Positions 32,382 to 46,683 of a stretch of 64,000 bases of DNA are shown here, piece by piece; the stretch's first letter is position 1; every line of letters starts with the position of its first letter. A model generated the notes under the pieces. The model did not search any database. It was given only the letters and a program-made list of their open reading frames with translations, and was not told the DNA's origin. Source of the DNA: Candidatus Dormiibacterota bacterium (GTDB lineage Bacteria; Chloroflexota; Dormibacteria; Aeolococcales; Aeolococcaceae); the NCBI GenBank assembly GCA_963717185.1, contig CAVQVY010000038.1:24565-88564 (forward strand), written 5' to 3'. The position numbers and the translations under genes were made by a program.

Positions 32382-33329
32382 ATGCCAAACGACATCGATG
32401 TTCTCGTAAGTGAGGTTGGCCCCCGCGACGGACTCCAGAGCCTGCCACGGTTCGTGCCGACACTCATCAAGCACCGATGGATTTCGGCGCTCGTCTCATC
32501 GGGACTGCGGGAAATAGAAGTGACCTCGTTTGTCCCCGCCACCTTGCTGCCGCAGTTAGCCGACGCTGACGAAGTGGTCCGGCAAGCAGCAACAATTCCA
32601 GGGTTGACGGTCGTGGCGCTGGTGCCCAACCGGGTGGGCGCGGAGCACGCCTTTGCAGCCGGAGCACACAAAATCACGATGCCTGTTTCAGCCTCCCGGA
32701 AGCACAGCATGGCTAACCTGCGGAAAAGTCCAGAACAGGCAATCAAGGAGGTTGCAGCCTCCTGCGTGCTTCGGGATAGCTTTGCCGCAGAAGGGCGCCC
32801 GCAAGTCAAGGTCGCTGTTGCCACTGCTTTTGGCTGCGCCGAAGAAGGAGTGGTATCCGAGGATTGGGTGATGGAAATTGCGTCAACCGTTGTCCGGGCC
32901 GGGGCGGATTCTGTGGTCCTGGCGGATTCCACCGGCTATGGCAATCCGGCCCAGGTGAAGCGCATGTTCACTCGGCTCCGGCGGGAGATTGGCGAGAAGG
33001 CCGATGGCGCTCATTTCCACGATACCTTTGGGCTGGGGCTGGCGAACGTCGTGGCGGCCCTGGAAGCGGGAATCAAATCATTTGATTCCTCCCTAGGCGG
33101 TTTGGGCGGCTGCCCCTACATCCCGGGGGCAACCGGAAACATCGTGACCGAGGATCTCGTCTACCTTCTCGAGTCGATCGGGCTGCGCACCGGCATCGAT
33201 CTGAACAAATTGGCCGAGGCTCGAGGAATCCTTCTCGAAGGTTTACCCGGCGAGTCCCTAGGGGGGCACATAGCCAAAGCTGGCTTGCCGAAGGGCTTTA
33301 CACTGGCGTCCAAACGTCACTCCGCATGA
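32382..33329 (+). CDS. Hydroxymethylglutaryl-CoA lyase family protein
   Basis: EVGPRDGLQS...ADSTGYGNP...HFHDTFGLGLANVVAALEAG...GLGGCPY are the HMGL-like signature motifs. Confidence 0.85.
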   Translation: MPNDIDVLVSEVGPRDGLQSLPRFVPTLIKHRWISALVSSGLREIEVTSFVPATLLPQLADADEVVRQAATIPGLTVVALVPNRVGAEHAFAAGAHKITMPVSASRKHSMANLRKSPEQAIKEVAASCVLRDSFAAEGRPQVKVAVATAFGCAEEGVVSEDWVMEIASTVVRAGADSVVLADSTGYGNPAQVKRMFTRLRREIGEKADGAHFHDTFGLGLANVVAALEAGIKSFDSSLGGLGGCPYIPGATGNIVTEDLVYLLESIGLRTGIDLNKLAEARGILLEGLPGESLGGHIAKAGLPKGFTLASKRHSA

Positions 33330-34528
33330 ACAGTACGCTGCCCTGCGAAGGAGTTCGAGTCGTCGAGTTCGCCCACATGGTGATGGGGCCGACATGCGGC
33401 CTTATCCTCGCCGATCTCGGCGCCGACGTCATCAAAGTTGAGCCAGCCAAGGGAGATAATACGCGCCGTCTGGCGGCATCCGGCGCCGGTTTCTGGCCGG
33501 CCTTTAATCGCAACAAGAGGAGTCTCGCGTTGGATGTCGGGTCACCCGAAGGACAGGAAATCATAAAGAAGCTAGTTCAGACCGCCGATGTCGTTACAGA
33601 AAACTTCCGTCCAGGAGCGATGAAACAGCTGGGCCTGGGTTACGACGATTTCAAGCCGCTAAGACCGGATATCATTTACTGTTCATTGAAAGGATTCTTG
33701 AGAGGTCCCTACGGACATCGGGTAGCGCTTGACGAAGTGGTACAGATGATGGGTGGCCTGGCATACATGACAGGGTTAGAAGGCCAGCCTCTCCGCGCAG
33801 GGGCGTCTGTGAACGACATCATGGGCGGAATGTTCGGAGTCATCGCGATCCTGGCCGCCATTATCGAGCGCAACCGGACCGGCCAGGGACAATACATCGA
33901 AGGCGCCCTCTATGAGAACAATGTGTTCTTGATGGCCCAGCACATGCTGCAGTACAGCGTTACCGGAGTGGCCGCGCCTCCCATGTCGAACCGGCTTGTG
34001 TCCTGGGGAATCTACGACGTGTTCACGTCGAGCGATGGCCAACAAGTTTTTGTTGGAGTTGTAACCGACACGCAGTGGAAAACCTTTTGCGACGCCTTCC
34101 GGATGACGAAGTTGGCTGCGGACCCGGAATTGTCGACCAACAATCAGCGGGTTCAAGCTCGCGAACGCGTTCTGCCAGTTGTTCGGGAAGCATTCAGCCG
34201 GATGACCAAAGCCGAGCTTATCGAGAAGTGTGAGCGTGTGGGATTGCCCTTCGCACCGGTGATGAAGCCACAGGAGCTATTCGATGATCCGCATCTGACC
34301 GCTTCCGGCGGCCTGGCCGAGATAACCCTCGCCGATGGGAGAAAGGCAAGAGCGCCCAAGCTCCCTTTCGAAATGGATGGCCGCCGCTTCGGGACGCGCC
34401 TGGACCTTCCGGCCGTCGGAAGCCACACCAAGAGCTTGCTGAACGAACTTGGGTACCCGGACAGCGATATACGGCGGCTCTCGGCCAAAGGTGTGATTCG
34501 GATTACCGACGAGGAAGATTGTTTGTAG
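33326..34528 (+). CDS. CoA-transferase family III (CaiB/BaiF-like)
   Basis: GVRVVEFAHMVMGPTCGLILADLGADVIKVEP...NRNKRSLALD is the family III CoA-transferase N-terminal signature. Its ATG overlaps the upstream stop (ATGA). Confidence 0.85.
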   Translation: MNSTLPCEGVRVVEFAHMVMGPTCGLILADLGADVIKVEPAKGDNTRRLAASGAGFWPAFNRNKRSLALDVGSPEGQEIIKKLVQTADVVTENFRPGAMKQLGLGYDDFKPLRPDIIYCSLKGFLRGPYGHRVALDEVVQMMGGLAYMTGLEGQPLRAGASVNDIMGGMFGVIAILAAIIERNRTGQGQYIEGALYENNVFLMAQHMLQYSVTGVAAPPMSNRLVSWGIYDVFTSSDGQQVFVGVVTDTQWKTFCDAFRMTKLAADPELSTNNQRVQARERVLPVVREAFSRMTKAELIEKCERVGLPFAPVMKPQELFDDPHLTASGGLAEITLADGRKARAPKLPFEMDGRRFGTRLDLPAVGSHTKSLLNELGYPDSDIRRLSAKGVIRITDEEDCL

Positions 34529-34577
34529 GGAGTGTTAGAAATATTTGCCTCTGTTGCCCAATAGCTAGGAGATAGAC

Positions 34578-35915
34578 ATGCTGAGGAAAGTGGAATGGCA
34601 GTTTTTCTCTTCCCTGATGTTTCTTGTGCAATTGATGGTGGCTCCTGTCAGCTTGTGGTCCCAGGCTCCTCCCGTAACCCGGACCTTGGCGATTCGCGCC
34701 GGTCACTTGTTCGATCCGAAATCGGGCGCGATCGTGTCGAATCAAATCGTGCTTATCAGTGGCGACAAGATTGTCGATGTTGGTCCCCCCGATCGAGTTC
34801 AAGTTCCAAGTGATGCAAACGTTATCGATCTCGGTCAGGCGACCTTGCTCCCCGGGCTAATCGATGGTCACGTTCACCTCACTGACGACCAAGGGGGTCT
34901 GCAGCATCAAATGTTGGTCGGGCTGAACAGCGCTACCAGGAGCCTGAATGCCGGCTACACAACCCTCGTCGCAATGGGCTCTCATGGCGGCGGTTACGCG
35001 GATGTAGAGCTTAAAAGAGGCATCGAGAGCGGCCTTGTTCGAGGACCGCGCATCATCACCGCCGGCCCGCTGCTGCAGATTACCACCCCAGGAAGCGCCG
35101 TGTTCCCTTTGGAGTTCAAACCGTTTGTCGCTGACCTGATCGCAAACGGTCCTGAAGAGATGCGGGCGGCTGTGCGAGAACTGGCTCACTATGGTGTTGA
35201 TCACGTGAAGATCATTACCACCGGCCCGTTCTATTTCAAATCCGATGGAACGATGGTCAATCAAGCACTTTTTAGTCTCGAAGAAATAAAAGCGGTCGTG
35301 GATGAAGCGCATCGCCGGGGCCTGTGGGTCGCCAGCCATTCTTACGGAGGAGACGGGCTAAAATGGCCGCTCGAAGCGGGCGTTGATAACATTCAACATG
35401 CGGTTGCCGCAGATGATGCGGACATAAAAACTTTCGTGAACAAGAAGCTTCCGCTGACCGTCACTACGTTGGATATGCGTCAGGACGAACCGGGGGACCT
35501 CAAGCGTTTCGCGCCGTACAGCCGGTTTCGACTCATGGAACAGACCTGGAAGAAGCTCTTAGCGGCGGGAGTCATCCTTGGCTTTGGGAGCGGAGCCGCG
35601 CCGCCTCCGGGGAGGGTATACAACCTGGAATGCAATTGTTCCCATGGAGTCCAAGGTGAAATGTTTCCGCTTTACGTGAAATGGGGCACCAGTCCTTTAT
35701 ATGCGCTGCGGATGGCGACCACTGTAAATGCCCAAATCCTTCATATGGAGGACAAACTCGGCACCATCGAAAAAGGAAAATTTGCGGACATCATCGCTGT
35801 CTCGGGAGATCCACTACAGGATATCAGCGAGCTGCAGCGGGTGAAGTTCGTGATGAAGGGCGGCGAAACCATCCGAAACGATTTCGCGGCGCACGGGATG
35901 ACGGCTTCGCGCTGA
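34578..35915 (+). CDS. Secreted amidohydrolase-family metallohydrolase
   Basis: A signal-like N-terminus is followed by LLPGLIDGHVHL (HxH metal motif). The C-terminal part is GKFADIIAVSGDPLQDISEL. An AGGAGA RBS is present. Confidence 0.8.
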   Translation: MLRKVEWQFFSSLMFLVQLMVAPVSLWSQAPPVTRTLAIRAGHLFDPKSGAIVSNQIVLISGDKIVDVGPPDRVQVPSDANVIDLGQATLLPGLIDGHVHLTDDQGGLQHQMLVGLNSATRSLNAGYTTLVAMGSHGGGYADVELKRGIESGLVRGPRIITAGPLLQITTPGSAVFPLEFKPFVADLIANGPEEMRAAVRELAHYGVDHVKIITTGPFYFKSDGTMVNQALFSLEEIKAVVDEAHRRGLWVASHSYGGDGLKWPLEAGVDNIQHAVAADDADIKTFVNKKLPLTVTTLDMRQDEPGDLKRFAPYSRFRLMEQTWKKLLAAGVILGFGSGAAPPPGRVYNLECNCSHGVQGEMFPLYVKWGTSPLYALRMATTVNAQILHMEDKLGTIEKGKFADIIAVSGDPLQDISELQRVKFVMKGGETIRNDFAAHGMTASR

Positions 35916-36248
35916 CGCCGGGTTTACTTTCGCCTAACCAGAGCGCCTGGTTCGGGCGACGGTGGAAAATCAAAGCTTCGGCGTCGTTTAACTGCCAAAA
36001 AACCGTTCCTCGCTTCTTAGCACTTCGACAGCGCTCGCATTGTCATAACCGTTTCTTCTCCAACTAAGCCTCGACCGTCTTCCATTGTTTCTTCGAAAGA
36101 TCAACCCACTAATTCACCATGCAAGAGGTTCGTTCTTTTTTCAAGGGAGTGCCGAGGCTGCCACCCATCGTGTTTTCGCAACCCCGTCGACGAACAGAAT
36201 CGTTTTGATCTTTGTACAGATAACTCAGCTTCGCGAACGATTTTATTA

Positions 36249-36277
36249 TTGACATTCTCCCCGATGTTCACAATACT
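36249..36277 (+). promoter_or_regulatory. Sigma70-type promoter TTGACA-17 nt-AATACT with AT-rich upstream tract (unit P1)
   Basis: Read directly: TTGACA at 36249-36254 and AATACT at 36272-36277. TTTTATTA lies upstream. An ATG follows 7 nt after the -10 element. Confidence 0.5.
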
Positions 36278-36284
36278 GCAGGCC

Positions 36285-36365
36285 ATGTCTAGCTATTGCT
36301 TTTACGCCTGTAGGTGCTGCGTGGTTTGTTGTCACCAGCAGTGTCTTTTGCCAACGGCGAGCTAG
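36285..36365 (+). CDS. Candidate leaderless Cys-rich micro-ORF P1 (26 aa): MSSYCFYACRCCVVCCHQQCLLPTAS
   Basis: My own translation. It has 7 Cys codons in 26, including two tandem pairs. There is no room for a Shine-Dalgarno sequence. It is too short for the ORF track. Confidence 0.4.
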   Translation: MSSYCFYACRCCVVCCHQQCLLPTAS

Positions 36366-36368
36366 ACG

Positions 36369-36410
36369 ACCCTGACACCTTAGTTCGAGCAGTCAGGGTT
36401 CTTCCTTTGG
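36369..36410 (+). terminator. Hairpin ACCCTGAC-N15-GTCAGGGT followed by TCTTCCTTTGG (weak intrinsic terminator or attenuator)
   Basis: An 8-bp perfect stem starts 3 nt after the P1 stop. The T tract is interrupted, so terminator strength is uncertain. Confidence 0.3.
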
Positions 36411-36547
36411 TATCCTCCTAGTTCTTCGTTGGCTCCCAGTCATTTGCTTTGATCTGCTGCTTGATCTGCATATCAGCGCTTTGGCGTCGGGGCGAATTAT
36501 CTGCTGCCCGACTCAGAGCGAATCTCACCAGGAGAGTGTATTGAGCT

Positions 36548-37360
36548 ATGAGGACTCGTTTCGCTTTTCCTAGTTTAGCCAGCAATCGCCCATGGCAAGC
36601 CGGCAGCAGTGGCATGCGGGGCGTGCGAATGGCGGTCTTATTTTTGTGCTTGCCGGCAACGGTTCTGGGTCAGTCCAAGCCAGCTTCTCAGATTCCGCGT
36701 GCTGCCGATGGTCACCCCGATCTTTCCGGGTTCTGGCAGGTGATAAGCTCCGCGGACTGGAACATTCAGGATCATTCAGCCGAAAAGGGAGTTCCCGCTG
36801 GACAAGGGATTGTAATTGGCAACGAAATTCCCTACCAGTCCTGGGCCGCTGCGAGGAAGAAGGAAAACTATGAGCACCGCGATGCAATGGACCCAAAAGC
36901 AAAATCCTATGTCCCCGGCGTCCCACGGATCACATACACATCGTTTCCTTTCCAAATCGTTCAGACGCCAAACGAAGTGGCAATTCTCTACGAGTATGTC
37001 CACGCTGTTCGTCATCTCTACACTAGCAGGCCCCAACATCCGGCCGGGCACATTGACTTCTGGCTGGGCGATTCACGGGGACATTGGGAGGCTGACACAC
37101 TGGTTGTTGACGTCACGGATTTCAATGATTCTTCGTGGTTCGATCACGCGGGCAATTTCCACAGCGACGCGCTGCACGTCGTTGAACGTTATACCTTCAT
37201 TGATCGGGATCACATCGATTACCAGGCCGCGATTGAAGACCCTAAGGTCTTTACCAAGCCTTGGAAGATCGATGTTGTTCTCTACCGCCATGTGGAGAAA
37301 AACTTCCAGCTACTCGACTATGAAGGGTATGCCTTCGACTATGAAAAATATTATCCATAG
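36548..37360 (+). CDS. Secreted hypothetical protein, paralogue A (PDLSG.W / GDSRGHWE.DTLVVDV family)
   Basis: Signal-like MAVLFLCLPATVLGQS. The motifs GHPDLSGFWQ, IPYQSWAA, GDSRGHWEADTLVVDVT and FTKPWK are shared with the next gene. The start is uncertain (36548, 36614 or 36629). Confidence 0.7.
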   Translation: MRTRFAFPSLASNRPWQAGSSGMRGVRMAVLFLCLPATVLGQSKPASQIPRAADGHPDLSGFWQVISSADWNIQDHSAEKGVPAGQGIVIGNEIPYQSWAAARKKENYEHRDAMDPKAKSYVPGVPRITYTSFPFQIVQTPNEVAILYEYVHAVRHLYTSRPQHPAGHIDFWLGDSRGHWEADTLVVDVTDFNDSSWFDHAGNFHSDALHVVERYTFIDRDHIDYQAAIEDPKVFTKPWKIDVVLYRHVEKNFQLLDYEGYAFDYEKYYP

Positions 37361-37462
37361 CCGCAAATCTTCTTCGTCGAAAAACTGAGTCAACCTGACT
37401 GAACTAGCGGTCCTTCCGGCAACGGGATCGAGCCCACAGTTGCCGCTTGGAGAGAGGATGCC

Positions 37463-38368
37463 ATGAGCGTTCGATCGATTCGCATGACAGTCGTCGGTTC
37501 CCTAGTAGCGGCGGTATTGTCTTTTGCAGTGCCTGTTATTTTCTCCCAGGAGCAAACATCATCTGCCACAGCCGAAACCCGCACTCCCGATGGCCAGCCA
37601 GATATTCAGGGAATCTGGCGGGCCAACCCTGGCGGCGACACCTATGACCTCACGGGTAATAAGCCGCGTCCGGACGTTGGGCTACAAGGCAATGGAAGGC
37701 CTCGGCCGGCGACACACCGGATTGTCGATGGGACCTCCGAAGGCAATATCCCGTACCAGTCCTGGGCCGAAGAAAAACAGAGAGATACCGAAGAACACGC
37801 TGATGACCCCATTAAACCGGAATACGTAGACACGCAGGCGCATTGCCTGCTCGAAGGACCAGGCCGCGTCTTTATCCATTCCGGCTTTCAGATACTCCAA
37901 GCCCCGGGGTATGTCCTTTTCTTTTTTGAAGAAAATGACGAGTCTCGGATCGTTCCTCTCGACGGCCGGCCGCATGTGGGTGAAGATATAAAGCTGTGGC
38001 AAGGAGACTCGCGCGGTCATTGGGAAGGCGACACACTGGTGATCGATGTCACCAATGTAAAGGCGAAATCAAGACTGGACATGGTGGGCGATTTCTACAG
38101 CCCGTCGGCTCACTTTGTCGAGCGGCTGACGCGCGTTGATGACAAAACGATCAACTATGAAGCGACGGTCACCGATCCTACTGTCTATACAAAACCCTGG
38201 AAGCTTACGGCCCGATTCGTGCGCAGATTTCCGAACGGATCTGACTACGAGATGTTTGAAGACGCGTGCCATGAAGGTGAGCGGAGTGCAGATAATCTGG
38301 TGATTCCGGAAGGCATCGCGAAGGAGAATGCTGAGAAGGCCAAGTCTGCCTCCAGGAAGCAACCATAG
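37463..38368 (+). CDS. Secreted hypothetical protein, paralogue B of the same family
   Basis: A GGAGAGAGG RBS is present, and the signal reads VGSLVAAVLSFAVPVIFSQ. Motifs are GQPDIQGIWR, IPYQSWAE, GDSRGHWEGDTLVIDVT and YTKPWK. It retains two Cys (AHCLLEG, DACHEGE) that paralogue A lacks. Confidence 0.75.
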   Translation: MSVRSIRMTVVGSLVAAVLSFAVPVIFSQEQTSSATAETRTPDGQPDIQGIWRANPGGDTYDLTGNKPRPDVGLQGNGRPRPATHRIVDGTSEGNIPYQSWAEEKQRDTEEHADDPIKPEYVDTQAHCLLEGPGRVFIHSGFQILQAPGYVLFFFEENDESRIVPLDGRPHVGEDIKLWQGDSRGHWEGDTLVIDVTNVKAKSRLDMVGDFYSPSAHFVERLTRVDDKTINYEATVTDPTVYTKPWKLTARFVRRFPNGSDYEMFEDACHEGERSADNLVIPEGIAKENAEKAKSASRKQP

Positions 38369-38613
38369 GCGTAGGGGAAAATGGGGTTCGCTTGAGTTCA
38401 TTCAGGGTTTTGCCAAGGAGCTTTCTAACTGAATCGGGCACAGCTGGCGTACGCGGACCCGTTTGCCTCCTCCGGGCAATCGCGCGCTTCGTTTTTTGGA
38501 TGGCGCGGGTAGACGCTCAGGGAGAAACCAGTGGCAGTTCGAGGCCACCAAGCGAGTGCGCCTTTCGAGTGGACCGAAAACCCAACCCCGATCAGCTTAA
38601 CAGGACATGACCG

Positions 38614-39039
38614 TCAGTTTTTATCTGACGGCGAGTCGCTACCCGTGATCTCACCTGCAGAAGTTGCAAGAAGAAAGTCTCGCCCGTCGGGCAACCTGAT
38701 ACTCGCGCCGTTTGCAGTCGGTGTGCCATTCTTAGCCCGATAGCCCTTAACGGTGACTTCGACGCCGGTCGGAAAGTCGGTTTTCCTAACCCCTTTTCTC
38801 AAGAGTGCGCCTGGTCCGCCGGTCTCAATCGCCCAAGTAACGACTTGGCTCTGTTCATTTTTCACGTCGACATAAATCCACCCATGGGGATTCACAAAGT
38901 CAAATTTCTTTAGGGTTCCTTTCAAGGTGACTGGCTGATTGATGTCGAACTCTGAGGTGAAAGAATGATGTGCGAATGCCGGCAGTGCGGCCACCAGAAT
39001 GCTCACAACAACTGGTAAGCGAGACAGCTTTCGTTTCAT
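38614..39039 (-). CDS. DUF6152-like small secreted protein
   Basis: A TAAGGAG RBS precedes the ATG at 39039. The signal peptide ends in PAFA, followed by HHSFTSEFDINQPVTLKGTLKKFDFVNPHGWIYVDV. This is the pattern I recall for DUF6152. Confidence 0.7.
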   Translation of the reverse strand: MKRKLSRLPVVVSILVAALPAFAHHSFTSEFDINQPVTLKGTLKKFDFVNPHGWIYVDVKNEQSQVVTWAIETGGPGALLRKGVRKTDFPTGVEVTVKGYRAKNGTPTANGASIRLPDGRDFLLATSAGEITGSDSPSDKN

Positions 39040-39451
39040 GGAATGCTCCTTAACTTTCATGGCCATAAGTTCTCGACTCATTACTCGAATATCTGACTCC
39101 GGGAACGAAAAGACTGCGCTGCCTTCAAACCACTGCGGGTAGCGCCGAGGGACATCGAACTATCGGTTGATTACCTCCACCGGGGTGGCCGCGGATTCTG
39201 AGCGGGCGTTCGCGTCCGCTCCTCTCGGACCGCTGATGTGACCCAGTCGGCGAATCATGCCTACCTCACCTCAAGTTGAATCGCGCCCACGCAGAATCGC
39301 CGCTACATGCCTGCTCGAAAAGATAATCGACTGTGTGCCACCGGAGATGATTCGCGCGACGTCTCGTCGACTTTCGGCCGTCACCTGGTGCCCATCACCG
39401 TCGGCGAGCTTTCCGTATTGCTGGGCCCCCCGCGAGTAATCCCATTGGCCG

Positions 39452-42400
39452 CTAGAAAACGACACGCACCGCTAACTCGCCTTGCTGTAATGGAAGCGCA
39501 GCGGTGAACGTTCCGAACGTGCCACCGGCGGTCGCCGACCCCGTAGATGCATTGGCCTGCTGTGTGGTACCAACTCCGCCATAGTTATTTGTACCGAGTA
39601 CGTTGAAGAGCTGACCGATGACTTGCAGCTTGAATCTTTCGCCGAGATCGATGTCTTTGCTGACGCGTGCGTCCAGCTGGTTGTAACGGTTGCTCTCAAT
39701 TTGTGACCGCGGGATCGGAGCCAGGCCTTTTGTAGCCCGCCACGCGTTGACGATTGCCAAAGTCTGGCCGATGTCGCGGGAGTTCTTACCCGTTCCCGGC
39801 ACGTAGTCGGTAATCGCTCCATCGTTGTTGAGGTCACCTCCAGCAAGCGCGCTGAAGGGCAATGAACTTCGCAAAGTCCAAATTGCCCCGACCGTGATCC
39901 GGTAACGCAGCAGCACCGAGCCGCTAACCACCAGGTTGTGACGACGGTCGGTGACAGCAAGTCCGTCATCTAACGAGGGATGGTAGAAGTCGGTGATGGC
40001 AGTGGTGCTGTTGTAGTTGTCAGTTTGTTTGGCCAGGGTGTACGAAACGACGTACTGGTAGCGTTTCGAGAAGCGTTTATCGAGACGAACGAAAAGTCCG
40101 CTGTAGTTGTAGTTTCCTATGGGCGCCGATTCATTGATTTGGCCGTAGGCCGGTAGAGGTCGTAGGCCGGTAAGCGGATTGGGCGTGTTGACGTTTTCGC
40201 TTACGACCAAGCCCTTCATATGCGTGAACAGGCCTTCTACGCTGAGTGCAAAGTCGGACTTGAACTGCCGCGCCACGCCGAGGTTGTAGGTAAAAACCTG
40301 TGGGTTATAAACGTTGTTAGCGTTGGTGCTGGTGTTGAGGGCTGATTGCGGATGAGCGGCGAGATATTGTTGGTAGGTTAGTCCATTATATGGATCTGGC
40401 CACGGGATAGGATTAGCGGTGGTACCTGTGATTGTGATCTGGGTTTGGCGGAGTGTTGTGATTTCGCCTTCGAATGCATTGTCTTGAAGATTTACATTAA
40501 CAATCCCAAATCCGCCCCGCACCACGGTGCGGCCGTCCTTCAAAGGGTCCCAAGCGAAGCCCATCCGCGGTGCAAGGTTATCGTAATCTCCGTGCCCCCC
40601 GAACTTAACGTAGGGCAGAGGCACTGGGTACAGCGACGCGCTCAGGTGATTCCGCCATACACCTGTTTGCAAATCGTAGCGGACGCCGAGATTGAGGGTC
40701 AGATTGGGCCGAACCTTCCACTCATCCTCGAAATAGAATCCCTGCATCAAGTTTTCGTCTTGCCAGTTGAGTTGTGGGAAGTTCGTGGTGAATTTAATTG
40801 GGGTGGCGCTGGCCACAGTCGTCCAGTTGAAGTTCGGATTTTGAGGATCAAAGGTTGGACTCGCCGCCGTTGGCTGGTAATCCTTCGCGAACGTCCATAC
40901 GCCTAGGGGAGTCGCCGGAGCATCGAGCTTTCTCGGAGTTCTCAGTTCATCCACACCGAATCTGAAGGTGTGCTGGGAGGCGGTCCTCGTCACATCGTCA
41001 CGGACCTCCTGATAGAACGGGTGAAACTCGGTGCTTTGATAGAATCCCCAAGTCAGATCCGGGAAATTGATCTGAATGCTGCCGTTGGCATATTGTGCGG
41101 GCGTGTTGAAATGGGGAGCCGTGCTGAGCTGCCAGGATTGAGCGACCTGCGCGGCGAACTGATTTACAGTCTTATCCGAAATCAACCAGCTATCGACCAG
41201 GGCGTATGTCCAGGACCTGACGCTTGAATCTCCGCTGCCGCTGAAAGCCGCAGCGTCTCCCCCATTGGCATTCTGAGCGTAGTTGGTGGCTGGGTTCTGT
41301 TCGGAAAATCGGAGAAAAGCACTGTTTTTGGGGCTGAATTGATAGTCGAGCCTTCCGAAATATTCTCGGAACAGAGCTCCGCCCCGGAAGCTGCCTTCGA
41401 GCGGCGCAAAGGCCGCAGTCACAGCGGGGCTTTTGCCGCCTCCCGGGGACACCGTGAAGTATTCCTGGTCATTTAGCTCTTCAAACGAAAACAGGAAATA
41501 AAGCCTGTCGTTCTGGATCGGGCCACCGATTTCGACACCATATTGGTTACGGCTGAAGGGTTGGATAGGGAATGCGGTTGGGTTGGAGTTATACTGCGCT
41601 TGAGTAATCGTATCCACTCGGTTGATGTAGTGGTCGCGGAAGTACTCGAAGGCCTCCCCATGTAGCTGGTTCGTACCGCCTTTCGAGGCCACCGTAACAA
41701 CGCCGGCCGCCCTTCCGCCATACTCAGCAGGGGCCTGGCCAAGAATCACCTTAAATTCCTGGACCACGGCCTCTTGCACCAGGTCGCGCGGGTCGCCATT
41801 CCCCGAGATAACGTTGCTCAGGCCATCCAGCAAATAGTTACTTCCAGCTGCATTGACTGCGCCAGCGCCAATGCTCGCCAGGGGTCTTGATACTCGTCCG
41901 ACATCGGGCGTTGTGCCTGGCTCCAAGAGGGCGAGCATCGCGACCTGGCGCTGCGTAATTGGTAAGGAATCGATCTGCTGCCGCTCCACCACCTCAGATG
42001 CCACCTCGCTGCTAGCGATCTCTACGACCGGGGCCTCGGATCGAACGGTAACCGTCTGTTCCACGCTACTAAGCTTGAGCGTGAGGTTCTGCGGAACCTC
42101 AAGGCCGATTGTGAGAACAAGGTCCTGTATCTCAACGGCTGCAAAGCCTTGTCGTTCGGCCTTCAAGTCGTAAGTGCCGGGAGGCAGCGGAGCCACGCGA
42201 TACTTTCCATCGTCTCCAGTTAGGCTTGTTCGCGTGAGCCCTGTTTCCGGATTTCTTACCGTCACGGTCACTCCTGGTTCTAGGGCGCCTTGCGCGTCGG
42301 TGATAGTTCCCAAGATGACAGCATCGGTCGACTGCGCCCCGGCCGAAACCACGCGCATAAAAATCCACACCGCTAGCACCGCAAATTGAAAGGCCGAATC

Positions 42401-42508
42401 CTCCAACAAGACGCGCCCGCGCCATGCCGCTTGCTTATAGAAACCGTCAGGCCGGTGCTGATTGAACTTTCCGAGGGTAAGTAGCTGGAAACTCTTGACT
42501 GCTGACAT
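39452..42508 (-). CDS. CarboxypepD_reg/TonB-dependent receptor (1018 aa from ATG 42508), Cys-free
   Basis: An AGGAGA RBS lies 8 nt before the ATG at 42508. The track start at 42679 lies inside an intrinsic terminator, so I reject it. GTITDAQGALEPGVTVTVRNPETGLTRTSLTGDDGKYRVAPLPPGTYDL is followed by plug and barrel. The C-terminus ends in ELAVRVVF. I found no Cys in the whole ORF. Confidence 0.85.
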   Translation of the reverse strand: MSAVKSFQLLTLGKFNQHRPDGFYKQAAWRGRVLLEDSAFQFAVLAVWIFMRVVSAGAQSTDAVILGTITDAQGALEPGVTVTVRNPETGLTRTSLTGDDGKYRVAPLPPGTYDLKAERQGFAAVEIQDLVLTIGLEVPQNLTLKLSSVEQTVTVRSEAPVVEIASSEVASEVVERQQIDSLPITQRQVAMLALLEPGTTPDVGRVSRPLASIGAGAVNAAGSNYLLDGLSNVISGNGDPRDLVQEAVVQEFKVILGQAPAEYGGRAAGVVTVASKGGTNQLHGEAFEYFRDHYINRVDTITQAQYNSNPTAFPIQPFSRNQYGVEIGGPIQNDRLYFLFSFEELNDQEYFTVSPGGGKSPAVTAAFAPLEGSFRGGALFREYFGRLDYQFSPKNSAFLRFSEQNPATNYAQNANGGDAAAFSGSGDSSVRSWTYALVDSWLISDKTVNQFAAQVAQSWQLSTAPHFNTPAQYANGSIQINFPDLTWGFYQSTEFHPFYQEVRDDVTRTASQHTFRFGVDELRTPRKLDAPATPLGVWTFAKDYQPTAASPTFDPQNPNFNWTTVASATPIKFTTNFPQLNWQDENLMQGFYFEDEWKVRPNLTLNLGVRYDLQTGVWRNHLSASLYPVPLPYVKFGGHGDYDNLAPRMGFAWDPLKDGRTVVRGGFGIVNVNLQDNAFEGEITTLRQTQITITGTTANPIPWPDPYNGLTYQQYLAAHPQSALNTSTNANNVYNPQVFTYNLGVARQFKSDFALSVEGLFTHMKGLVVSENVNTPNPLTGLRPLPAYGQINESAPIGNYNYSGLFVRLDKRFSKRYQYVVSYTLAKQTDNYNSTTAITDFYHPSLDDGLAVTDRRHNLVVSGSVLLRYRITVGAIWTLRSSLPFSALAGGDLNNDGAITDYVPGTGKNSRDIGQTLAIVNAWRATKGLAPIPRSQIESNRYNQLDARVSKDIDLGERFKLQVIGQLFNVLGTNNYGGVGTTQQANASTGSATAGGTFGTFTAALPLQQGELAVRVVF

Positions 42509-42663
42509 GAACTGATCTCCTGGCTTGAGCTGATCGGTTACCTCCAGGAGACTGGTGGGATGGCCGGAGTCGATTTTGCCTCCCCGGTCGGGGTCGGCTA
42601 GGGTGATGTCTCTGCGCTTTGTCGCCCGGCGGGTAGATAGCTCTGTGGGATTCTTGCGTCGGA

Positions 42664-42701
42664 AAAACAAAAAACCCACCTGCCGAGTGTTTGGCGGTGG
42701 G
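42664..42701 (-). terminator. Rho-independent terminator (CCCACCGCC-N8-GGCAGGTGGG then TTTTTTGTTTTT) downstream of micro-ORF P2 and upstream of the TonB receptor
   Basis: Read directly on the minus strand. The stem is 6+3 bp with one bulge, followed by an 11/12 T run. Confidence 0.7.
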
Positions 42702-42731
42702 TCCCTGGGCTACAGATCTTAAATCTAGCTG

Positions 42732-42818
42732 TTAAATTCTGCCCGCCTCAGAGAAGCCACACGCGCCGCATGTACAGCGGTTACAGGCTAGCGCGCGTCT
42801 CCGTGCGGCAAAAATCAT
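42732..42818 (-). CDS. Candidate leaderless Cys-rich micro-ORF P2 (28 aa): MIFAARRRALACNRCTCGACGFSEAGRI
   Basis: My own translation. It has 4 Cys in the pattern C-x2-C-x-C-x2-C. The ATG lies 7 nt after the -10 hexamer. The stop is 30 nt before the terminator stem. Confidence 0.45.
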   Translation of the reverse strand: MIFAARRRALACNRCTCGACGFSEAGRI

Positions 42819-42825
42819 GGAAGAG

Positions 42826-42854
42826 TTTATAGATGGACCGCGGTTGATTGTCAA
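42826..42854 (-). promoter_or_regulatory. Near-consensus sigma70 promoter TTGACA-17 nt-TATAAA (unit P2)
   Basis: Minus strand: TTGACA at 42854-42849 and TATAAA at 42831-42826. An A-rich tract (AATTTGAAAAAGG) lies upstream. Confidence 0.6.
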
Positions 42855-43026
42855 GCGCCTTTTTCAAATTCCAGTAAGGCGTACGTTGTCGCTCTGCTTC
42901 GAGCGTGCACGCAACAGCAGCTAAGCAACCTGAAGTGAATCAGCTTATGCTTCGCGCCACAAGTCGCCGGAGTCTACAAGCGGGCTTTGTCATCAACAAT
43001 CGGGAGACAAACTGAGACAAAACCTA

Positions 43027-43055
43027 TTGACTCGGAGATGGTCGTCTTGTATGGT
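43027..43055 (+). promoter_or_regulatory. Sigma70-type promoter TTGACT-17 nt-TATGGT (unit P3), divergent from P2
   Basis: Read directly. An A-rich tract lies upstream (GAGACAAACTGAGACAAAACC). An ATG follows 8 nt after the -10 element. Confidence 0.55.
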
Positions 43056-43063
43056 CGAATTCC

Positions 43064-43168
43064 ATGCGAGTCGGACTCCAAAGGATTTTACCGGGTGAGC
43101 AGTGTTGTCGCATCCCCTCGTGCGCACCGTGTTCCCTGGTTGTGGGGAGGCTAGTCCGAACGTTCTAA
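43064..43168 (+). CDS. Candidate leaderless Cys-rich micro-ORF P3 (34 aa): MRVGLQRILPGEQCCRIPSCAPCSLVVGRLVRTF (or a non-coding leader/sRNA)
   Basis: My own translation. It has 4 Cys including a tandem TGT TGT. The stop is 30 nt before the terminator stem, the same spacing as in P2. Confidence 0.4.
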   Translation: MRVGLQRILPGEQCCRIPSCAPCSLVVGRLVRTF

Positions 43169-43198
43169 GAACTTTCTTCTAGTCCAAAGGTCTCTTAG

Positions 43199-43239
43199 CC
43201 CACCGCCATAGGTTCATTGGCCGGTGGGTTTTTTCTTTT
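43199..43239 (+). terminator. Rho-independent terminator (CCCACCG-C-CCA loop TGG-C-CGGTGGG then TTTTTTCTTTT) between micro-ORF P3 and yezD
   Basis: Read directly. The 5' arm CCCACCGCC is identical to that of the P2 terminator. Confidence 0.75.
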
Positions 43240-43270
43240 ATGGCCTTGTTTTGTTTCCTTGAGGATTGGG

Positions 43271-43507
43271 ATGACGACGACCAAGTTGAATCCGAAAGTG
43301 GAGGAGCAAACAGCGCGGAACGACAAACTTCCGCCAGACGCAATTGAGTCTTTGCTCCAGAGTGACCAAGGACTTCTGTGGGAAGTGGTTCGGGCACTCA
43401 AAACGATTCAGTATGGCTCAATCGTGTTGACAATTCACAATGGCCAACTGGTCGAGGTTAGTAAAAACATCAGAATTCGCAGAAGTGAACCGAACAATGG
43501 GAAATAA
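43271..43507 (+). CDS. YezD/DUF2292-family small protein
   Basis: A GAGGA RBS precedes the ATG at 43271. ALKTIQYGSIVLTIHNGQLVEVSKNIRIR matches the YGSV.I.I.DG.VVQIE..EK.R signature of DUF2292. Confidence 0.7.
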   Translation: MTTTKLNPKVEEQTARNDKLPPDAIESLLQSDQGLLWEVVRALKTIQYGSIVLTIHNGQLVEVSKNIRIRRSEPNNGK

Positions 43508-43712
43508 TTCCATAGGGTGCTTTACCGTAGGTGGCGGATCTCTAGCAAAAACGGATTGCTTGACAGTACTTTATTCGCGCTCCGCCTTTCCATTTGTGAT
43601 CCCTTCTACTCGGTCGTGTTGTTGTCCCCCACAGCAATAGTGCTGGAGAGCGGGACGCGGGCGTGAGCAGACGACTGTAGCCGCAGGTTCTTCGAAATGT
43701 AACTTCCGCGAA

Positions 43713-43750
43713 GGCCCGTTTCCAGCATCTGGGAGCGGGCCTTTTGTTTT
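43713..43750 (+). terminator. Rho-independent terminator (GGCCCG...CGGGCC then TTTTGTTTT) between yezD and the first membrane paralogue
   Basis: Read directly. The extended imperfect stem is GGCCCGTTTCCAG/CTGGGAGCGGGCC. It lies 38 nt before the ATG at 43789. Confidence 0.65.
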
Positions 43751-43788
43751 GAGTCCATACCTACAGACTTTGGATTTCGGGCGGAACA

Positions 43789-44280
43789 ATGAACCTCATG
43801 CACTTGTGCCAATGGCTTAGCGAGACACCATTCGGAACTTCCATCCGGGAATCGCCATTTGCTTTTCCTTTCATCGAATCCGTTCATGTTCTGGGAATAA
43901 CCCTCTTGGTAGGCACCGTCGCGGTTGTAGATCTGCGTCTTCTAGGTGTGGTGATGAAAGACGAGCAGGTGTCAGAGATCGTGAGCCGAGTGTTGCCACT
44001 AACTTGGTGCGGGTTTCTCATTCAGGTTGTCAGCGGCTTGCTTCTGTTCTGGGCCAAGGCGGACGAATATTACCTTAATCCTGTGTTCCGTCTTAAATTG
44101 CTGCTGCTCCTGCTGGCTGGCCTCAACCCGCTAATCTTTCATTCCACTCTGTATCGAAGCGTTTCGGAGTGGAACGACAAGCAGACGACACCCGTTCTTG
44201 CAAAGGTCGCAGGGCTTTTCTCTTTGACGCTCTGGAGCGGCGTCATTGTCGTGGGAAGGGCCATTGCTTATTTCAAATAG
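43789..44280 (+). CDS. Small 4-TM membrane protein, paralogue 1 (possibly DUF6644)
   Basis: 163 aa. The motifs ...W(L)..TP.G..IR.S...(F)P.IE.VH.L...L.G....VDLRL.G and GRAI(A/G)(Y/F) are shared with the next gene. Confidence 0.65.
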   Translation: MNLMHLCQWLSETPFGTSIRESPFAFPFIESVHVLGITLLVGTVAVVDLRLLGVVMKDEQVSEIVSRVLPLTWCGFLIQVVSGLLLFWAKADEYYLNPVFRLKLLLLLLAGLNPLIFHSTLYRSVSEWNDKQTTPVLAKVAGLFSLTLWSGVIVVGRAIAYFK

Positions 44281-44316
44281 CTTGCCAGAGATTCTCTGCG
44301 AACAAGGCGCTTGCCG

Positions 44317-44793
44317 ATGAGTGTTATCAATTTATTTCAATGGCTCGGGCACACACCAATGGGACTGGCGATAAGGCATTTCACCTGGGGTGTCGCGATT
44401 GTGGAGATGATACACCTTCTGGCCCTCGCGGCATTGGGTGGATCAATCCTGATTGTCGATCTTCGCCTCTGGGGGATTGGACTGAGGCGTCAATCGCCTT
44501 CTCATCTGGCGAAGGAGCTGGCTCCCATCTTTCTGGGAAGCCTCATCGTGATCTTAATTTCGGGTGTGCTGATTCTCTCTGCGGAACCGATGAAGTGCTA
44601 TTACAGCGACGCTTTTCGGCTCAAGATGCTTTTGCTTTTGTTGGCTATCTCGTTCCATTTCACTCTCCACAGCAAGGCGGTGAAGTCGGCGTCGGGACAG
44701 ATTCACAGCATCTGGTCGCGATCGGCGGCGGCTTTGTCCCTGGCGTTGTGGCTGGCAGTGGGTCTCGCGGGCAGGGCGATCGGTTTTCTGTGA
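44317..44793 (+). CDS. Small 4-TM membrane protein, paralogue 2
   Basis: About 158 aa. The regions FQWLGHTPMGLAIRHF...IVEMIHLLALAALGGSILIVDLRLWG...GRAIGFL parallel the preceding gene. Confidence 0.65.
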   Translation: MSVINLFQWLGHTPMGLAIRHFTWGVAIVEMIHLLALAALGGSILIVDLRLWGIGLRRQSPSHLAKELAPIFLGSLIVILISGVLILSAEPMKCYYSDAFRLKMLLLLLAISFHFTLHSKAVKSASGQIHSIWSRSAAALSLALWLAVGLAGRAIGFL

Positions 44794-44854
44794 GAGCAAG
44801 TGGTAACCGATGTGAATCCTTTGAACTGCTGATCGATGAAGGGAGTTGCAACCT

Positions 44855-46035
44855 ATGGGAATGAGATTTTATTTTCGGTGGGCGACGATTCTTCTTACCT
44901 TGCTGGGCCTCTCAGGTTCGGTTCCTGCGCAGTCGGTGGCGGGTCTTTGGGAGGGCCATGTAAACATCGACGGATTGAGTATTCCATTTCAGCTCGAGAT
45001 TTCAGGGAACGGATCTGCCGTGAAAGGCGCATTCCTTAATGGAGACGAGAAAGTCACCTCCACTGGCGGCCGCTTTGAAAACGGTGCTGTGATTCTAGAT
45101 TTTGACGAGTACGCCGAAACCCTGCAAGCGACTCTGGAAAACGGCCAATTGACAGGCATGATCGAGGGTCGATTTGGCCCGGGGTCGCGCAAAGCGCTAC
45201 CGTTTGAGGCGAAACCTTTTGTTCACGCTCCGGAATCGGTGTCGAAAACGATCCCCTCGATTGACGGTATCTGGGAGATTGAGAACCACAGCCCCAAAGG
45301 CGAATCGGCATGGCGCTTCATTGTCCGCCAGGCCGGTGGCGATGTTTCTGCGGCAATTTTGCGGGTAGATGGCGACACGGGTACTCTGACCGGCCACTAC
45401 CACGACGGCAAATTCGCGCTGAGCCATTTCTCGGGCGAGCGCCCCTACTTGGTCGACGTAACTCCGCAAAGCGAAGGAACGATCCTGCTGACGCTTAGCG
45501 ATCGTTCCGGTAAGAAAGATCTGACCGCCTACCGCCCCGCCGCAGCGCGAGCCAAAGGACTGCCTGAACCAACCGACCCAAACCAGCACACGAAGGTTAA
45601 AGATCAAGCTCAGCCCTTCGAGTTCAAGTTTCGCGATGTCGACGGACACGTGGTTTCCAATACGGATTCCCGTTTCCGTGGAAAGGTGGTGCTGGTCAAC
45701 GTCACAGGTAGTTGGTGCCCCAATTGCCACGACGAAGCTCCATTTCTCGCGGGGCTTTATCGCAAATACCGCAATGCAGGACTGGAAATCGTGGCGCTCG
45801 ATTTTGAAGAGCCCGAGCAGCTTGAGGATCTGACGAGATTGCGGGCTTTCGTCGCGCACTATGGAATCGAATACACCGTGCTAGTGGGCGGAACCCCTGA
45901 GCAGGTCAACCAAAAGATTCCGCAACTGGCGAATCTGAACGCCTGGCCCACGACCGTCCTGGTGGGGCGGGATGGGCTCGTCAAAGGAGTTCACGTCGGA
46001 TTCGCTAGTGCCGCCAGCGGTGAGTTTAACAAAGT
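44855..46035 (+). CDS. TlpA-like thiol:disulfide oxidoreductase with large N-terminal domain; 3' end cut off at the compositional junction
   Basis: A signal-like N-terminus is followed by GKVVLVNVTGSWCPNCHDEAPFLAGLYRKYRNAGLEIVALDFEE...AWPTTVLVGRDGLV, a thioredoxin fold with CxxC. After ...ASGEFN (about 46035) the same reading frame runs into unrelated high-GC sequence. Confidence 0.7.
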
Positions 46036-46129
46036 ACGACGAAGCAGCCCGCACCCTGCCCCAACCGGAGACGCAGACCCAGGAGCGTCCGCCGTCGATC
46101 GCGGTCACGACGAACCAGCGGACGCCGGC

Positions 46130-46384
46130 GATGATCCCTTCCGGGTCACCCGGCTCATTGCCAAGCAGGGCACGGTGGGCTTCGCTTGGCGCGTGTACAG
46201 CCTCGGGCGACGCTTCGCCCACCGCGAGGTCACCATCGTGGCCGAGGACGACGTGGTGCGCTTCTATCTCGGCGATGTCCTGGTCCGAACCCACCCACGC
46301 GGCGAGCACGGAAGCTACGTCAAAGCGACCATACGAACGGAGGTGATCCGCCGAAAAACCCTGCCTCGAACAGCTGTCAATTGA
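46130..46384 (+). mobile_element. Transposase/integrase (rve-type) C-terminal fragment
   Basis: FRVTRLIAKQGTVGFAWRVYSLGRRFAHREVTIVAEDDVVRFYLGDVLVRTHPR resembles the beta-barrel C-terminal domain of IS481/IS21/IS3-type DDE transposases. No catalytic core is present. Confidence 0.45.
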
Positions 46385-46683
46385 GGGCTGTGTCAAATCT
46401 GACCCGGTACTACTTCGTCAAGCGGGTGCCGGAATCAAACACGGCCGCCACCCCATGAGCCGGCGTTATTGCGTCGGTCTCGCACCCTGTGCGCGCCGAG
46501 CCTCCCGGAGGGACCGCGAACGGTCAGCCTGACCGTGGCTTACCGCCCGACGTCGCCAGTTGCCGCCGTCGTGTCGATTTCACCGCCTGGGACGGGTTCT
46601 CGAGGGGTAAGAAAACACCAAGCTCCCCGCGAGTCGATGTAACGCGCCTCGCGAAACCCGTGTGACTTCACCCAGCGGAGGAG

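Follow-up and report, generated by a model that had tools for sequence, protein, structure and literature searches.

Sulfur-poor proteins behind cysteine-rich leader reading frames suggest sulfur sparing at a soil acidobacterial locus

The low-GC part of the window (the whole stretch of 64,000 nucleotides that was analysed) derives from a Terriglobia-type acidobacterium and contains a soil acidobacterial locus with a GC content of 57%, as against 70% in the bin that holds the window; the bin is another organism and not the source genome of this stretch. On the plus strand, the gene of paralogue A (36548..37360), a secreted protein from a large family for which Pfam has no model, is followed in the same operon by that of paralogue B (37463..38368). 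On the minus strand are genes for a DUF6152 protein (38614..39081; 104 bits against PF19649, for which the Pfam cut-off is 27) and a TonB-dependent receptor (39452..42508) with Pfam scores of 308 bits and 66.8 bits (CarboxypepD_reg and OMP_b-brl_4), both above the gathering score. Further genes on the plus strand encode a small YezD/DUF2292 protein of 78 amino acids (43271..43507; 33.6 bits against Pfam DUF2292, which passes the cut-off of 22), two DUF6644 membrane proteins (43789..44280 and 44311..44793) and a TlpA/ResA-like periplasmic thiol:disulfide oxidoreductase (44846..46032), the 3′ end of whose gene is cut by an assembly join at 46032.

Short open reading frames (sORFs) rich in cysteine codons lie among these genes. 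In unit P1, on the plus strand, a sigma-70-type promoter (36249..36277; TTGACA, 17 nucleotides, AATACT) stands 7 nucleotides upstream of the ATG of a leader sORF of 26 codons with seven Cys (36285..36365; MSSYCFYACRCCVVCCHQQCLLPTAS), after which come a hairpin of -15.9 kcal/mol and a U-rich tail (36368..36412), a weaker terminator than those of the other three units. Unit P2, on the minus strand, has a promoter (42826..42854; TTGACA, 17 nucleotides, TATAAA) 7 nucleotides upstream of the ATG, a leader sORF of 28 codons with four Cys (42732..42818; MIFAARRRALACNRCTCGACGFSEAGRI) and an intrinsic terminator (42660..42705) consisting of a hairpin of -20.2 kcal/mol and then UUUUUUGUUUUU. Unit P3, on the plus strand, has a promoter (43027..43055; TTGACT, 17 nucleotides, TATGGT) 8 nucleotides upstream of the ATG, a leader sORF of 34 codons with four Cys (43064..43168; MRVGLQRILPGEQCCRIPSCAPCSLVVGRLVRTF) and an intrinsic terminator (43197..43240) with a hairpin of -19.5 kcal/mol and then UUUUUUCUUUU. 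A possible fourth Cys sORF, P4 (43596..43640, plus strand), ends in ...SCCCPPQQ, has an uncertain GTG start and is followed by a strong terminator hairpin of -28.2 kcal/mol (43708..43756, plus strand). The putative -10 elements of P1 to P3, as read from the sequence, end 7-8 nucleotides upstream of the ATG, and in each unit the Cys-rich ORF would begin at, or immediately beside, the 5′ terminus of the transcript. Consecutive Cys codons occur as CC twice in P1, as CC in P3 and as CCC in P4, and no two of the four Cys in P2 are adjacent.

In relatives, the length of the P1 sORF (26 amino acids) and its ...C(P/L)LPTAS end are conserved, as might be expected if the Cys-rich sORFs encoded functional peptides (metal-binding or modified, for example) rather than sensors, and if the sulfur-poor composition of the proteins downstream were unrelated to them; conserved non-Cys residues, of unknown meaning, are also found in mycobacterial sORFs (Canestrari et al., 10.1101/834739). 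Such a function is very improbable, however, considering that a hairpin and U run typical of intrinsic terminators stand directly after each sORF, that Cys codons are the sole feature common to the four sORFs of the window, that the leaders of other loci are wholly different in sequence and alike in Cys richness, and that no maturation or export genes were found nearby.

In mycobacteria, polycysteine leaderless sORFs have been shown experimentally to give cysteine-responsive control (the 'Cys ribulon'; Canestrari et al. 2020, 10.1101/834739), which is translational, the stalled ribosome freeing a sequestered ribosome-binding site (10.1101/834739). The present units resemble that system in that Cys-rich sORFs, predicted to lie at the mRNA 5′ end, precede several operons of putative cysteine or sulfur metabolism, each of which would be controlled separately in response to a shared signal. 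They differ in belonging to organisms of a different phylum, in having Cys codons that are partly scattered rather than gathered in one tract, and in having an intrinsic terminator after each sORF with no sign that a ribosome-binding site is freed. Because of the terminators, transcriptional attenuation is more likely here than the translational control of mycobacteria. The regulon would consist of four short transcription units, each made up of a promoter, a Cys-rich ORF, a terminator hairpin and structural genes; when Cys-tRNA is scarce, the ribosome would probably stall in the leader and transcription would read through into the genes of A and B, of the receptor and DUF6152, of YezD, and of the two DUF6644 proteins and the TlpA-like redoxin.

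The composition of the proteins encoded downstream, which is treated here, is not addressed in Canestrari et al. 2020 (10.1101/834739). All of the Cys and Met counts reported by the first-pass annotation for the receptor, DUF6152, YezD and paralogues A and B were reproduced. The receptor has no Cys and six Met in its whole translation of 1018 amino acids, and no Cys and four Met (0.42%) in the 960 residues of the mature protein after ...SAGA. Mature DUF6152 (118 amino acids after PAFA, with the N-terminus HHSF) has no Cys and no Met, and YezD lacks Cys and has a single Met, the initiator, with no sulfur in its other 77 residues. The sole Cys of paralogue A is within the signal peptide, so that the mature protein of 228 amino acids has no Cys and one Met, and mature paralogue B (273 amino acids) has two Cys and two Met, the mean of B-type family members being 4.25 Met. 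The mature TlpA-like redoxin (368 amino acids) has a CxxC pair and one Met (0.82%). Depletion is not seen in the two DUF6644 proteins, with 2.5% and 3.8% sulfur residues. The other receptor of the window, for which about ten Cys and about ten Met had been counted, consists of two same-frame pieces on the minus strand (28275-30920 and 27426-28190) with an in-frame stop between them, which together do contain 10 Cys and 10 Met.

When the six soluble or outer-membrane products, namely the receptor, DUF6152, YezD, paralogues A and B and the TlpA-like redoxin, are pooled, they have 12 sulfur residues in 2024 amino acids (0.59%), versus 2.79% in the background, 400 kb sampled from the genome of a related member of the Acidobacteriaceae that is not the source organism. 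Of 100,000 random six-protein sets, none was as low, and the whole locus has 0.94% versus a minimum of 1.68% among 8-gene windows of the sample. It might be that low Cys and Met are simply usual for exported, beta-rich proteins and for the families in question, and that the disulfide of paralogue A was lost as a neutral, one-off event of drift. Putative secreted proteins of the background are in fact somewhat lower, at 2.35% pooled versus 2.79% overall (median 2.16%, n = 54, by a crude prediction), and short proteins are commonly sulfur-free: 7-10% of background proteins of DUF6152-like or YezD-like length likewise lack sulfur residues. Set against the 54 putative secreted proteins, A, the receptor and DUF6152 rank no higher than the 2nd percentile. 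DUF6152 belongs to a family in which 62 of 69 homologues have no Cys and 26 of 69 have no Met, and its sulfur-poor composition is a family-wide trait. Taken singly, DUF6152 and YezD are unremarkable and add little evidence.

The receptor, which the first-pass annotation had considered weak evidence if taken alone, is stronger than that, acidobacterial receptors of its type usually having 2-16 Cys. It is the fourth lowest in sulfur content among 70 receptors and lies below all 29 receptors of the related genome G001 (range 0.79-2.57%; none of the 29 is Cys-free), a result contrary to a mere trait of family or compartment, and eight S-locus receptors differ from those 29 with a Mann-Whitney p of 2e-5. 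The sulfur depletion of the receptor is real.

YezD aligns with the NCBIfam model of OscA (NF033785, 'sulfur starvation response protein') at 31.4 bits (E = 1.4e-7), below the equivalog cut-off of 85 bits, and is a relative of OscA and not its orthologue. Like OscA of Pseudomonas, which falls in DUF2292/YezD, it is a small DUF2292 protein in a sulfur-scavenging context, and oscA is counted among the sulfur-homeostasis genes of P. aeruginosa (PMC10433965).

The positions of A that correspond to the two Cys of paralogue B are S120 and G260. Both columns hold Cys in 190 of the 215 members of the A/B family, and the sulfur-free clade of A, in which both have been lost, is nested and derived within the family; the Cys pair kept by B is ancestral, and the sulfur-free state is the derived one. 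Four columns that hold Met in 72-78% of orthologues are T, L, I and V/T/L in A's clade; the exchange of these conserved Met positions accompanied that of the Cys pair. Of the 120 homologues closest to A, all 52 that lack the pair have 0-1 Met despite 25-40% divergence, versus 0-8 Met in the 68 that have it, and both patterns argue against neutral loss. The Cys pair has also been lost, outside any sulfur context, in at least four further clades of the A/B family, as drift would allow; there are such clades that have kept their Met, and Cys loss alone is therefore not diagnostic. The informative contrast is that of A with its own orthologues, rather than that of A with B, which had been put forward as the stronger point, and the depletion of A is real. 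Sulfur depletion relative to both proteome and homologues is distinctive for the receptor, paralogue A and the TlpA-like protein.

The first-pass annotation had also pointed to the known replacement of Cys-containing isoforms by Cys-free ones. A and B are 34% identical, share an operon and a leader, with 102 nucleotides between them, and stand in tandem in most loci; no Cys-containing copy of A under separate regulation was seen in the 70 kb examined. Alternative isoforms, with a sulfur-poor form replacing a sulfur-rich one, were accordingly rejected in favor of ancient co-operonic paralogues.

Six of the seven members of the sulfur-free A clade have a Cys-rich sORF upstream, versus 4 of 188 family members with the Cys pair (10 of 188 in an antisense control), counts that are phylogenetically non-independent because the clade represents one lineage or a few. 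No Cys leader was detectable ahead of the sulfur-free A orthologue of G001, and therefore leader and composition are not strictly coupled.

The pattern of sulfur depletion is repeated in nine related loci. In orthologous loci the same genes adjoin those of an SsuA-family ABC transporter, TauD, a rhodanese and a CDO_I-like protein; CDO-like and rhodanese genes follow A and B only in sulfur-free loci (L006 and L007 of 80 genome loci; L001-3 and L136-139), which also encode an SsuA-family binding protein (155 bits) and TauD. Genes for SsuABC, rhodanese and CDO are absent from the window's own locus up to the assembly break at 46032, beyond which they may lie. Across the regulon, soluble and outer-membrane proteins are depleted (A 0%, DUF6152 0%, MBL-fold protein 0.21%, CDO-like protein 0-1.7%, receptor 0.3-0.8%, SsuA-type binding protein 0.7-1%), whereas the ABC ATPase (3.5-5%), the permease (3.4-4.4%) and the DUF6644 membrane proteins (2.3-5.4%) are not, nor are the flanking genes (2.4-3.7%). 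The MBL-fold protein is nearly sulfur-free, and so is the CDO-like protein, which is apparently cytoplasmic (a signal-peptide-like N-terminus was not seen in its L003 copy); the flanking genes do not show this depletion. Compartment, family and drift are thus an unlikely cause of the depletion, already largely contradicted.

The proteins with the deepest depletion lie mostly outside the cytoplasm, a thiol:disulfide oxidoreductase is present at the locus, and a rhodanese and a CDO-like protein are present in relatives, all of which would fit an envelope system for the handling of reactive sulfur species or oxidants, from which Cys and Met were removed as protection against persulfidation or oxidation. 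There is little probability of this, given that the CDO-like protein is depleted too, that the envelope-embedded DUF6644 proteins and permease are not, that paralogue B, which shares the compartment, has retained its Cys pair, and that the Cys-codon leaders would indicate cysteine supply as the signal.

The depletion is probably best explained as sulfur sparing in a cysteine/sulfur-limitation regulon of the Terriglobia-type acidobacterium. A sulfur economy of this kind had been suggested by the first-pass annotation, and is supported by independent comparative evidence: the sulfur-gene neighbours, the OscA relative, the recurrence of depletion across protein families unrelated to one another and across nine loci, and the ancestral Cys pair. 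The genes would be induced by limitation of sulfur or cysteine; since their products would be needed exactly while Cys and Met are scarce, both residues would have been purged over evolutionary time from the abundant soluble and outer-membrane products, which would lower the sulfur cost of the response and prevent ribosomes from stalling on Cys and Met codons within the induced genes.

The Ssu, Tau and Sbp proteins of E. coli and Pseudomonas are examples of sulfur sparing. Sulfur-poor phycobiliproteins of cyanobacteria were reportedly described by Mazel and Marliere in 1989, sulfur-depleted enzymes of sulfur assimilation in E. coli and yeast are said to have been described by Baudouin-Cornu et al. 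in 2001, and yeast Pdc6 is reportedly the sulfur-sparing example of Fauchon et al. in 2002. As in those systems, proteins of a putative sulfur-acquisition response have far less Cys and Met than either the proteome or their homologues, and depletion is strongest among the abundant soluble or periplasmic components. The present case differs in that it concerns uncultured soil Acidobacteria and mostly uncharacterised families, comprises a whole clade of mature domains of about 221 amino acids with zero sulfur atoms, and reached this state through the loss of an ancestral Cys pair; a sulfur-rich counterpart under separate regulation is not found here because A and B are co-operonic. The locus is probably a new and unusually clean case of the known sulfur-poor design of sulfur-starvation proteins; Baudouin-Cornu 2001 and Gutu 2011 are among the papers that PMC4357790 cites.

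More tentatively, the purge of Cys and Met might be mainly a consequence of how the regulon switches and not of saving atoms. A widespread uptake module of receptor, DUF6152 and A-B would have been captured by Cys-codon attenuators, after which the ancestral disulfide and all Met were lost in one lineage; Cys codons in the released genes would be selected against because they would stall ribosomes too, and a coupled Met supply could bring selection against Met codons as well. If so, soil Acidobacteria would have in this module an outer-membrane route for a sulfur source that has hitherto gone unrecognised, and 'zero-sulfur' mature proteins could be a sequence-only marker of sulfur-limitation regulons in uncultured bacteria.

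Among the fragmentary contigs found in soil metagenomes and metatranscriptomes, a single metatranscriptome contig reaches the 5′ end of the paralogue A gene.

The genes of the window were taken from an ORF listing and Pfam. Paralogue A (36548-37360, + strand) and its tandem paralogue B (37463-38368, + strand; 34% identity to A) match no Pfam or NCBIfam model. Pfam identifies a DUF6152 protein (38614-39081) and a TonB-dependent receptor with CarboxypepD_reg and OMP_b-brl_4 domains (39452-42508), both on the - strand, and, on the + strand, a YezD/DUF2292 protein (43271-43507), two DUF6644 membrane proteins (a, 43789-44280; b, 44311-44793) and a TlpA/ResA-like redoxin (44846 onward). Cysteine-rich leaders precede the gene groups: P1 (36285-36365, + strand, seven Cys), P2 (42818-42732, - strand, four Cys), P3 (43064-43168, + strand, four Cys) and the candidate P4 (43596-43640, + strand, containing CCC). 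P1, P2 and P3 are each preceded by a sigma-70-like promoter ending 7-8 nt 5′ of the ATG, and every leader unit has a stable hairpin and U run behind it, with folding energies of -15.9, -20.2, -19.5 and -28.2 kcal/mol. A scan of positions 30000-47000 against Rfam (E <= 1) returned neither a riboswitch nor a known leader. The P4 frame, located between yezD and the DUF6644 genes, has three consecutive TGT codons (...SCCCPPQQ) and an uncertain start codon; together with the terminator behind it (-28.2 kcal/mol), which is stronger than any other in the locus, it spans 43596-43756 (+ strand). The gap between the receptor and DUF6152 genes (39082-39451, - strand) is 370 nt long and holds no Cys-rich frame; in L003, a close relative, it measures about 60 nt. 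It is therefore less certain in the window that DUF6152 and the receptor are co-transcribed.

First-pass annotation had proposed a genome-wide ranking of sulfur content, for which the bin cannot be used because it is not the source genome of this DNA. The assembly of 2.8 Mb has about 70% GC, while positions 1-46032 of the window (the contig's first 70.5 kb) have 54-61% GC. GC content leaps from about 55% to about 71% at 46032-46130 (contig position 70.5 kb), inside the ORF 44846-46384, in which the redoxin runs in frame into a C-terminal fragment of a Mu transposase. In the best independent DNA run, a soil-metagenome contig matches 45910-46032 exactly and then continues into unrelated sequence, and no contig bridges 46033-46114. 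The join at 46032 is most likely a chimeric assembly. The nearest relatives of the locus are found in MAGs of Acidobacteriaceae and 'Acidiferrales'. Composition statistics of a MAG window on a chimeric contig should not be set against the bin, and three substitutes were used: the low-GC stretch's own 58 genes; from G001, a related Acidobacteriaceae MAG whose orthologue of A is 69% identical, a 400-kb sample together with every receptor of the same family; and comparisons at the family level. More stretches of 50-60% GC occur in or at the ends of bin contigs C5 (57.5-80 kb), C18 (70-80 kb), C24 (165-190 kb), C31 (107-112 kb), C34 (72-80 kb) and C38, the contig of the window (280-286 kb); they reflect either multiple chimeric joins or multiple islands of foreign DNA.

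When the translations were recounted, all of the Cys and Met counts given previously were reproduced. Cys and Met together make up 0.44% of mature paralogue A (0 Cys and 1 Met in 228 aa), 1.47% of mature paralogue B (2 Cys and 2 Met in 273 aa), 0.42% of the mature receptor (0 Cys and 4 Met in 960 aa), 0.82% of the mature redoxin (1 Met and the 2 Cys of a CxxC motif in 368 aa), and 0% of both mature DUF6152 (118 aa) and YezD (77 aa), which have no Cys or Met at all. The corresponding values are 2.5% for DUF6644 a (2 Cys and 2 Met in 162 aa) and 3.8% for DUF6644 b (1 Cys and 5 Met in 159 aa). Background frequencies are 0.79% Cys and 1.88% Met in the low-GC stretch, and 0.92% Cys and 1.95% Met in the G001 sample, or 2.79% pooled once the first 40 residues are trimmed. 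The six soluble or outer-membrane products of the locus pool to 0.59%, and not one of 100,000 random six-protein sets is as low; the whole locus, at 0.94%, lies below the lowest eight-gene window of the G001 sample (1.68%). Ranked with 54 proteins that were crudely predicted to be secreted (median 2.16%), paralogue A, the receptor and DUF6152 fall at or below the 2nd percentile.

Taken one by one, these proteins differ in weight. The receptor had been considered weak evidence by itself and turns out to be strong: acidobacterial receptors of this type usually contain 2-16 Cys, and the window receptor falls below all 29 receptors of G001 (0.79-2.57% sulfur residues), none of which is Cys-free. 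It is fourth lowest in sulfur content among 70 receptors, and the eight receptors of orthologous sulfur loci (0.31-0.95%) differ from the 29 of G001 with p = 2e-5 in a Mann-Whitney test that ignores phylogeny. The sulfur content of DUF6152 is ordinary for its own family, in which 62 of 69 homologues have no Cys and 26 of 69 no Met, and YezD is too short for significance on its own. Mature DUF6152, if cleaved after ...PAFA, would start with His-His (HHSF), and an HHSF or HHAF start is also seen in L003, L005 and L051; these N-terminal residues suggest a possible metal site. The second TonB-dependent receptor of the window (27426-30920, - strand) has one in-frame stop at 28275-28277 (...GSYT*SRCEDN...), which points to pseudogenization, strain variation or an error in sequencing.

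In five related loci, depletion was found in paralogue A and DUF6152 (0% each), an MBL-fold protein of about 506 aa (0.21%), a CDO-like protein (0-1.7%), the receptor (0.3-0.8%), an SsuA-type binding protein (0.7-1.0%), the TlpA-like redoxin (1.1-1.9%) and a rhodanese (1.3-2.2%), but not in the ABC ATPase (3.5-5%), the permease (3.4-4.4%), DUF6644 (2.3-5.4%) or flanking unrelated genes (2.4-3.7%). Sulfur sparing predicts just such a split: the abundant parts, soluble or in the outer membrane, strongly depleted, and the low-copy membrane and ATPase parts not at all. The same pattern might be ascribed purely to the compartment in which these proteins reside, or purely to protection from reactive sulfur or oxidants. 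Both explanations are argued against by the recurrence of the split across unrelated protein families and by the depletion of the CDO-like protein, which is probably cytoplasmic, as its L003 copy has no signal-peptide-like N-terminus; protection may nevertheless contribute, though this is unlikely.

The A/B family is large (more than 8000 hits, 9217 representatives), and a family alignment made to ask whether the two Cys of paralogue B are ancestral found Cys at both columns (S120 and G260 in A) in 190 of 215 family members (86 loci). With three exceptions, the other members lack the two Cys together, as expected of a disulfide pair. The two Cys of B are thus ancestral. In the clade of A the pair has been replaced by S/G or N/G, and four columns that hold Met in 72-78% of the Cys-pair orthologues have changed as well, to T, L, I and V/T/L at positions 131, 173, 241 and 243. 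FastTree places this clade as derived and nested, beside low-Met relatives. Among the 120 database clusters closest to A, the 52 without the Cys pair all have 0-1 Met in the 221-aa domain, and the 68 with the pair have 0-8. Because other family clades have lost the Cys pair yet kept 3-8 Met, the joint loss of Cys and Met is a distinctive trait of the A clade, a natural experiment in which a protein has dispensed with a conserved disulfide and all Met.

A is not a Cys-free isoform that replaces B: the two genes are separated by 102 nt in which no terminator was seen, and the tandem is present in most loci. B is itself poor in Met, with 2 versus a mean of 4.25 for B-type proteins. A lipoprotein role for the Cys in the signal peptide of A was considered and rejected, FLC not being a lipobox. 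A Foldseek search of the PDB with an AlphaFold2 model of A (pLDDT 65) gave only non-significant hits to calycin/lipocalin-like beta-barrels (E >= 0.04), so no function can be assigned to A from structure. A 151-nt soil-metatranscriptome contig corresponds to 36502-36652, the 5′ end of A, with two mismatches; a near-identical strain thus seems to express A in soil, although public runs yielded only low-depth soil contigs and this one is silent on induction.

The contigs with close A orthologues share a conserved divergent locus. One arm encodes the receptor, sometimes the MBL-fold protein, a protein of about 220 aa, DUF6152, the TlpA-like redoxin, two DUF6644 proteins and an ABC transporter whose binding protein scores 155 bits against the SsuA family model; the other encodes A, B, a CDO_I-like protein and a multi-domain rhodanese, joined by TauD in one relative. 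Sulfur genes are not general neighbours of the A/B family: by family profile, the CDO-like protein and rhodanese occur in only 2 of 80 genome loci, both with a sulfur-free A, and the general neighbour is DUF6152 (52 of 80). A Cys-rich ATG-initiated small ORF lies upstream of six of seven sulfur-free A genes, versus 4 of 188 Cys-pair genes, for which the antisense control strand gave 10 of 188. G001 is the exception: upstream of its sulfur-free A no leader was found. Relatives preserve both the 26-codon length and the ...PTAS end of the P1-type peptide, and Cys-rich small ORFs also occur between the divergent arms in L136, L138 and L139 and ahead of the L005 receptor. The YezD of the window scores 31 bits, below the equivalog cut-off, against the NCBIfam model 'sulfur starvation response protein OscA'; a published list of P. 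aeruginosa genes for sulfur homeostasis includes oscA (PMC10433965). A search of the accessible literature on YezD, DUF2292, DUF6152 and DUF6644 found nothing useful. The MBL-core protein (506-508 aa; L136 4503-6023 and L137 4660-6186, both - strand, between receptor and DUF6152) contains a single Met and 0 Cys, less sulfur than any other large protein seen, and is absent from the window; its annotation as an alkylsulfatase is unsupported, the match being to the generic metallo-beta-lactamase core alone.

Sulfur sparing in proteins made during sulfur starvation is a textbook principle, reportedly set out by Mazel and Marliere in 1989, Baudouin-Cornu et al. in 2001 and Fauchon et al. in 2002. 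Part of this literature, including Baudouin-Cornu et al. 2001, is cited in PMC4357790. The composition of the locus is independent evidence, drawn from sequence alone, that the four Cys-rich leader units belong to a sulfur- or cysteine-limitation response, and it marks the products likely to be made in bulk during that response. We infer induction, an attenuation mechanism and a selective cause of the following kind: in a cysteine shortage, ribosomes would stall in the leaders, the terminators would be bypassed, and a set of sulfur-scavenging envelope proteins would be made that may have shed nearly all need for Cys and Met in the course of evolution, saving sulfur and remaining translatable under the inducing condition. 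Cysteine-responsive, Cys-rich leaderless small ORFs are known in mycobacteria, where they act on translation (10.1101/834739); in contrast, the switch here is probably transcriptional. The probable transcriptional form of the switch is new, as are the phylum, the protein families of unknown function and a large clade of mature domains without any sulfur atom. The candidate sulfur-scavenging system is a conserved, uncharacterised envelope module of Acidobacteria, a phylum that is dominant in soil and poorly represented in culture, comprising the TonB-dependent receptor, DUF6152, the A/B family (which has no Pfam model), two DUF6644 proteins and the TlpA-like redoxin.

Sulfur-poor relatives also occur elsewhere. 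In six loci of Bryobacterales MAGs (L009, L015-L018 and L035), the A orthologues have only 1-3 Met and the adjoining receptors are Cys-free with 4-9 Met; an ATG-initiated Cys leader was not found in these loci, which may represent a graded sulfur-sparing trend under different control. In a Methylobacter MAG (L051, 1300-2659), a DUF6152 gene is immediately followed by an A-type gene with 1 Met that has lost the Cys pair independently (Y/G), which suggests that the sulfur-poor state arose a second time, outside the Acidobacteria.
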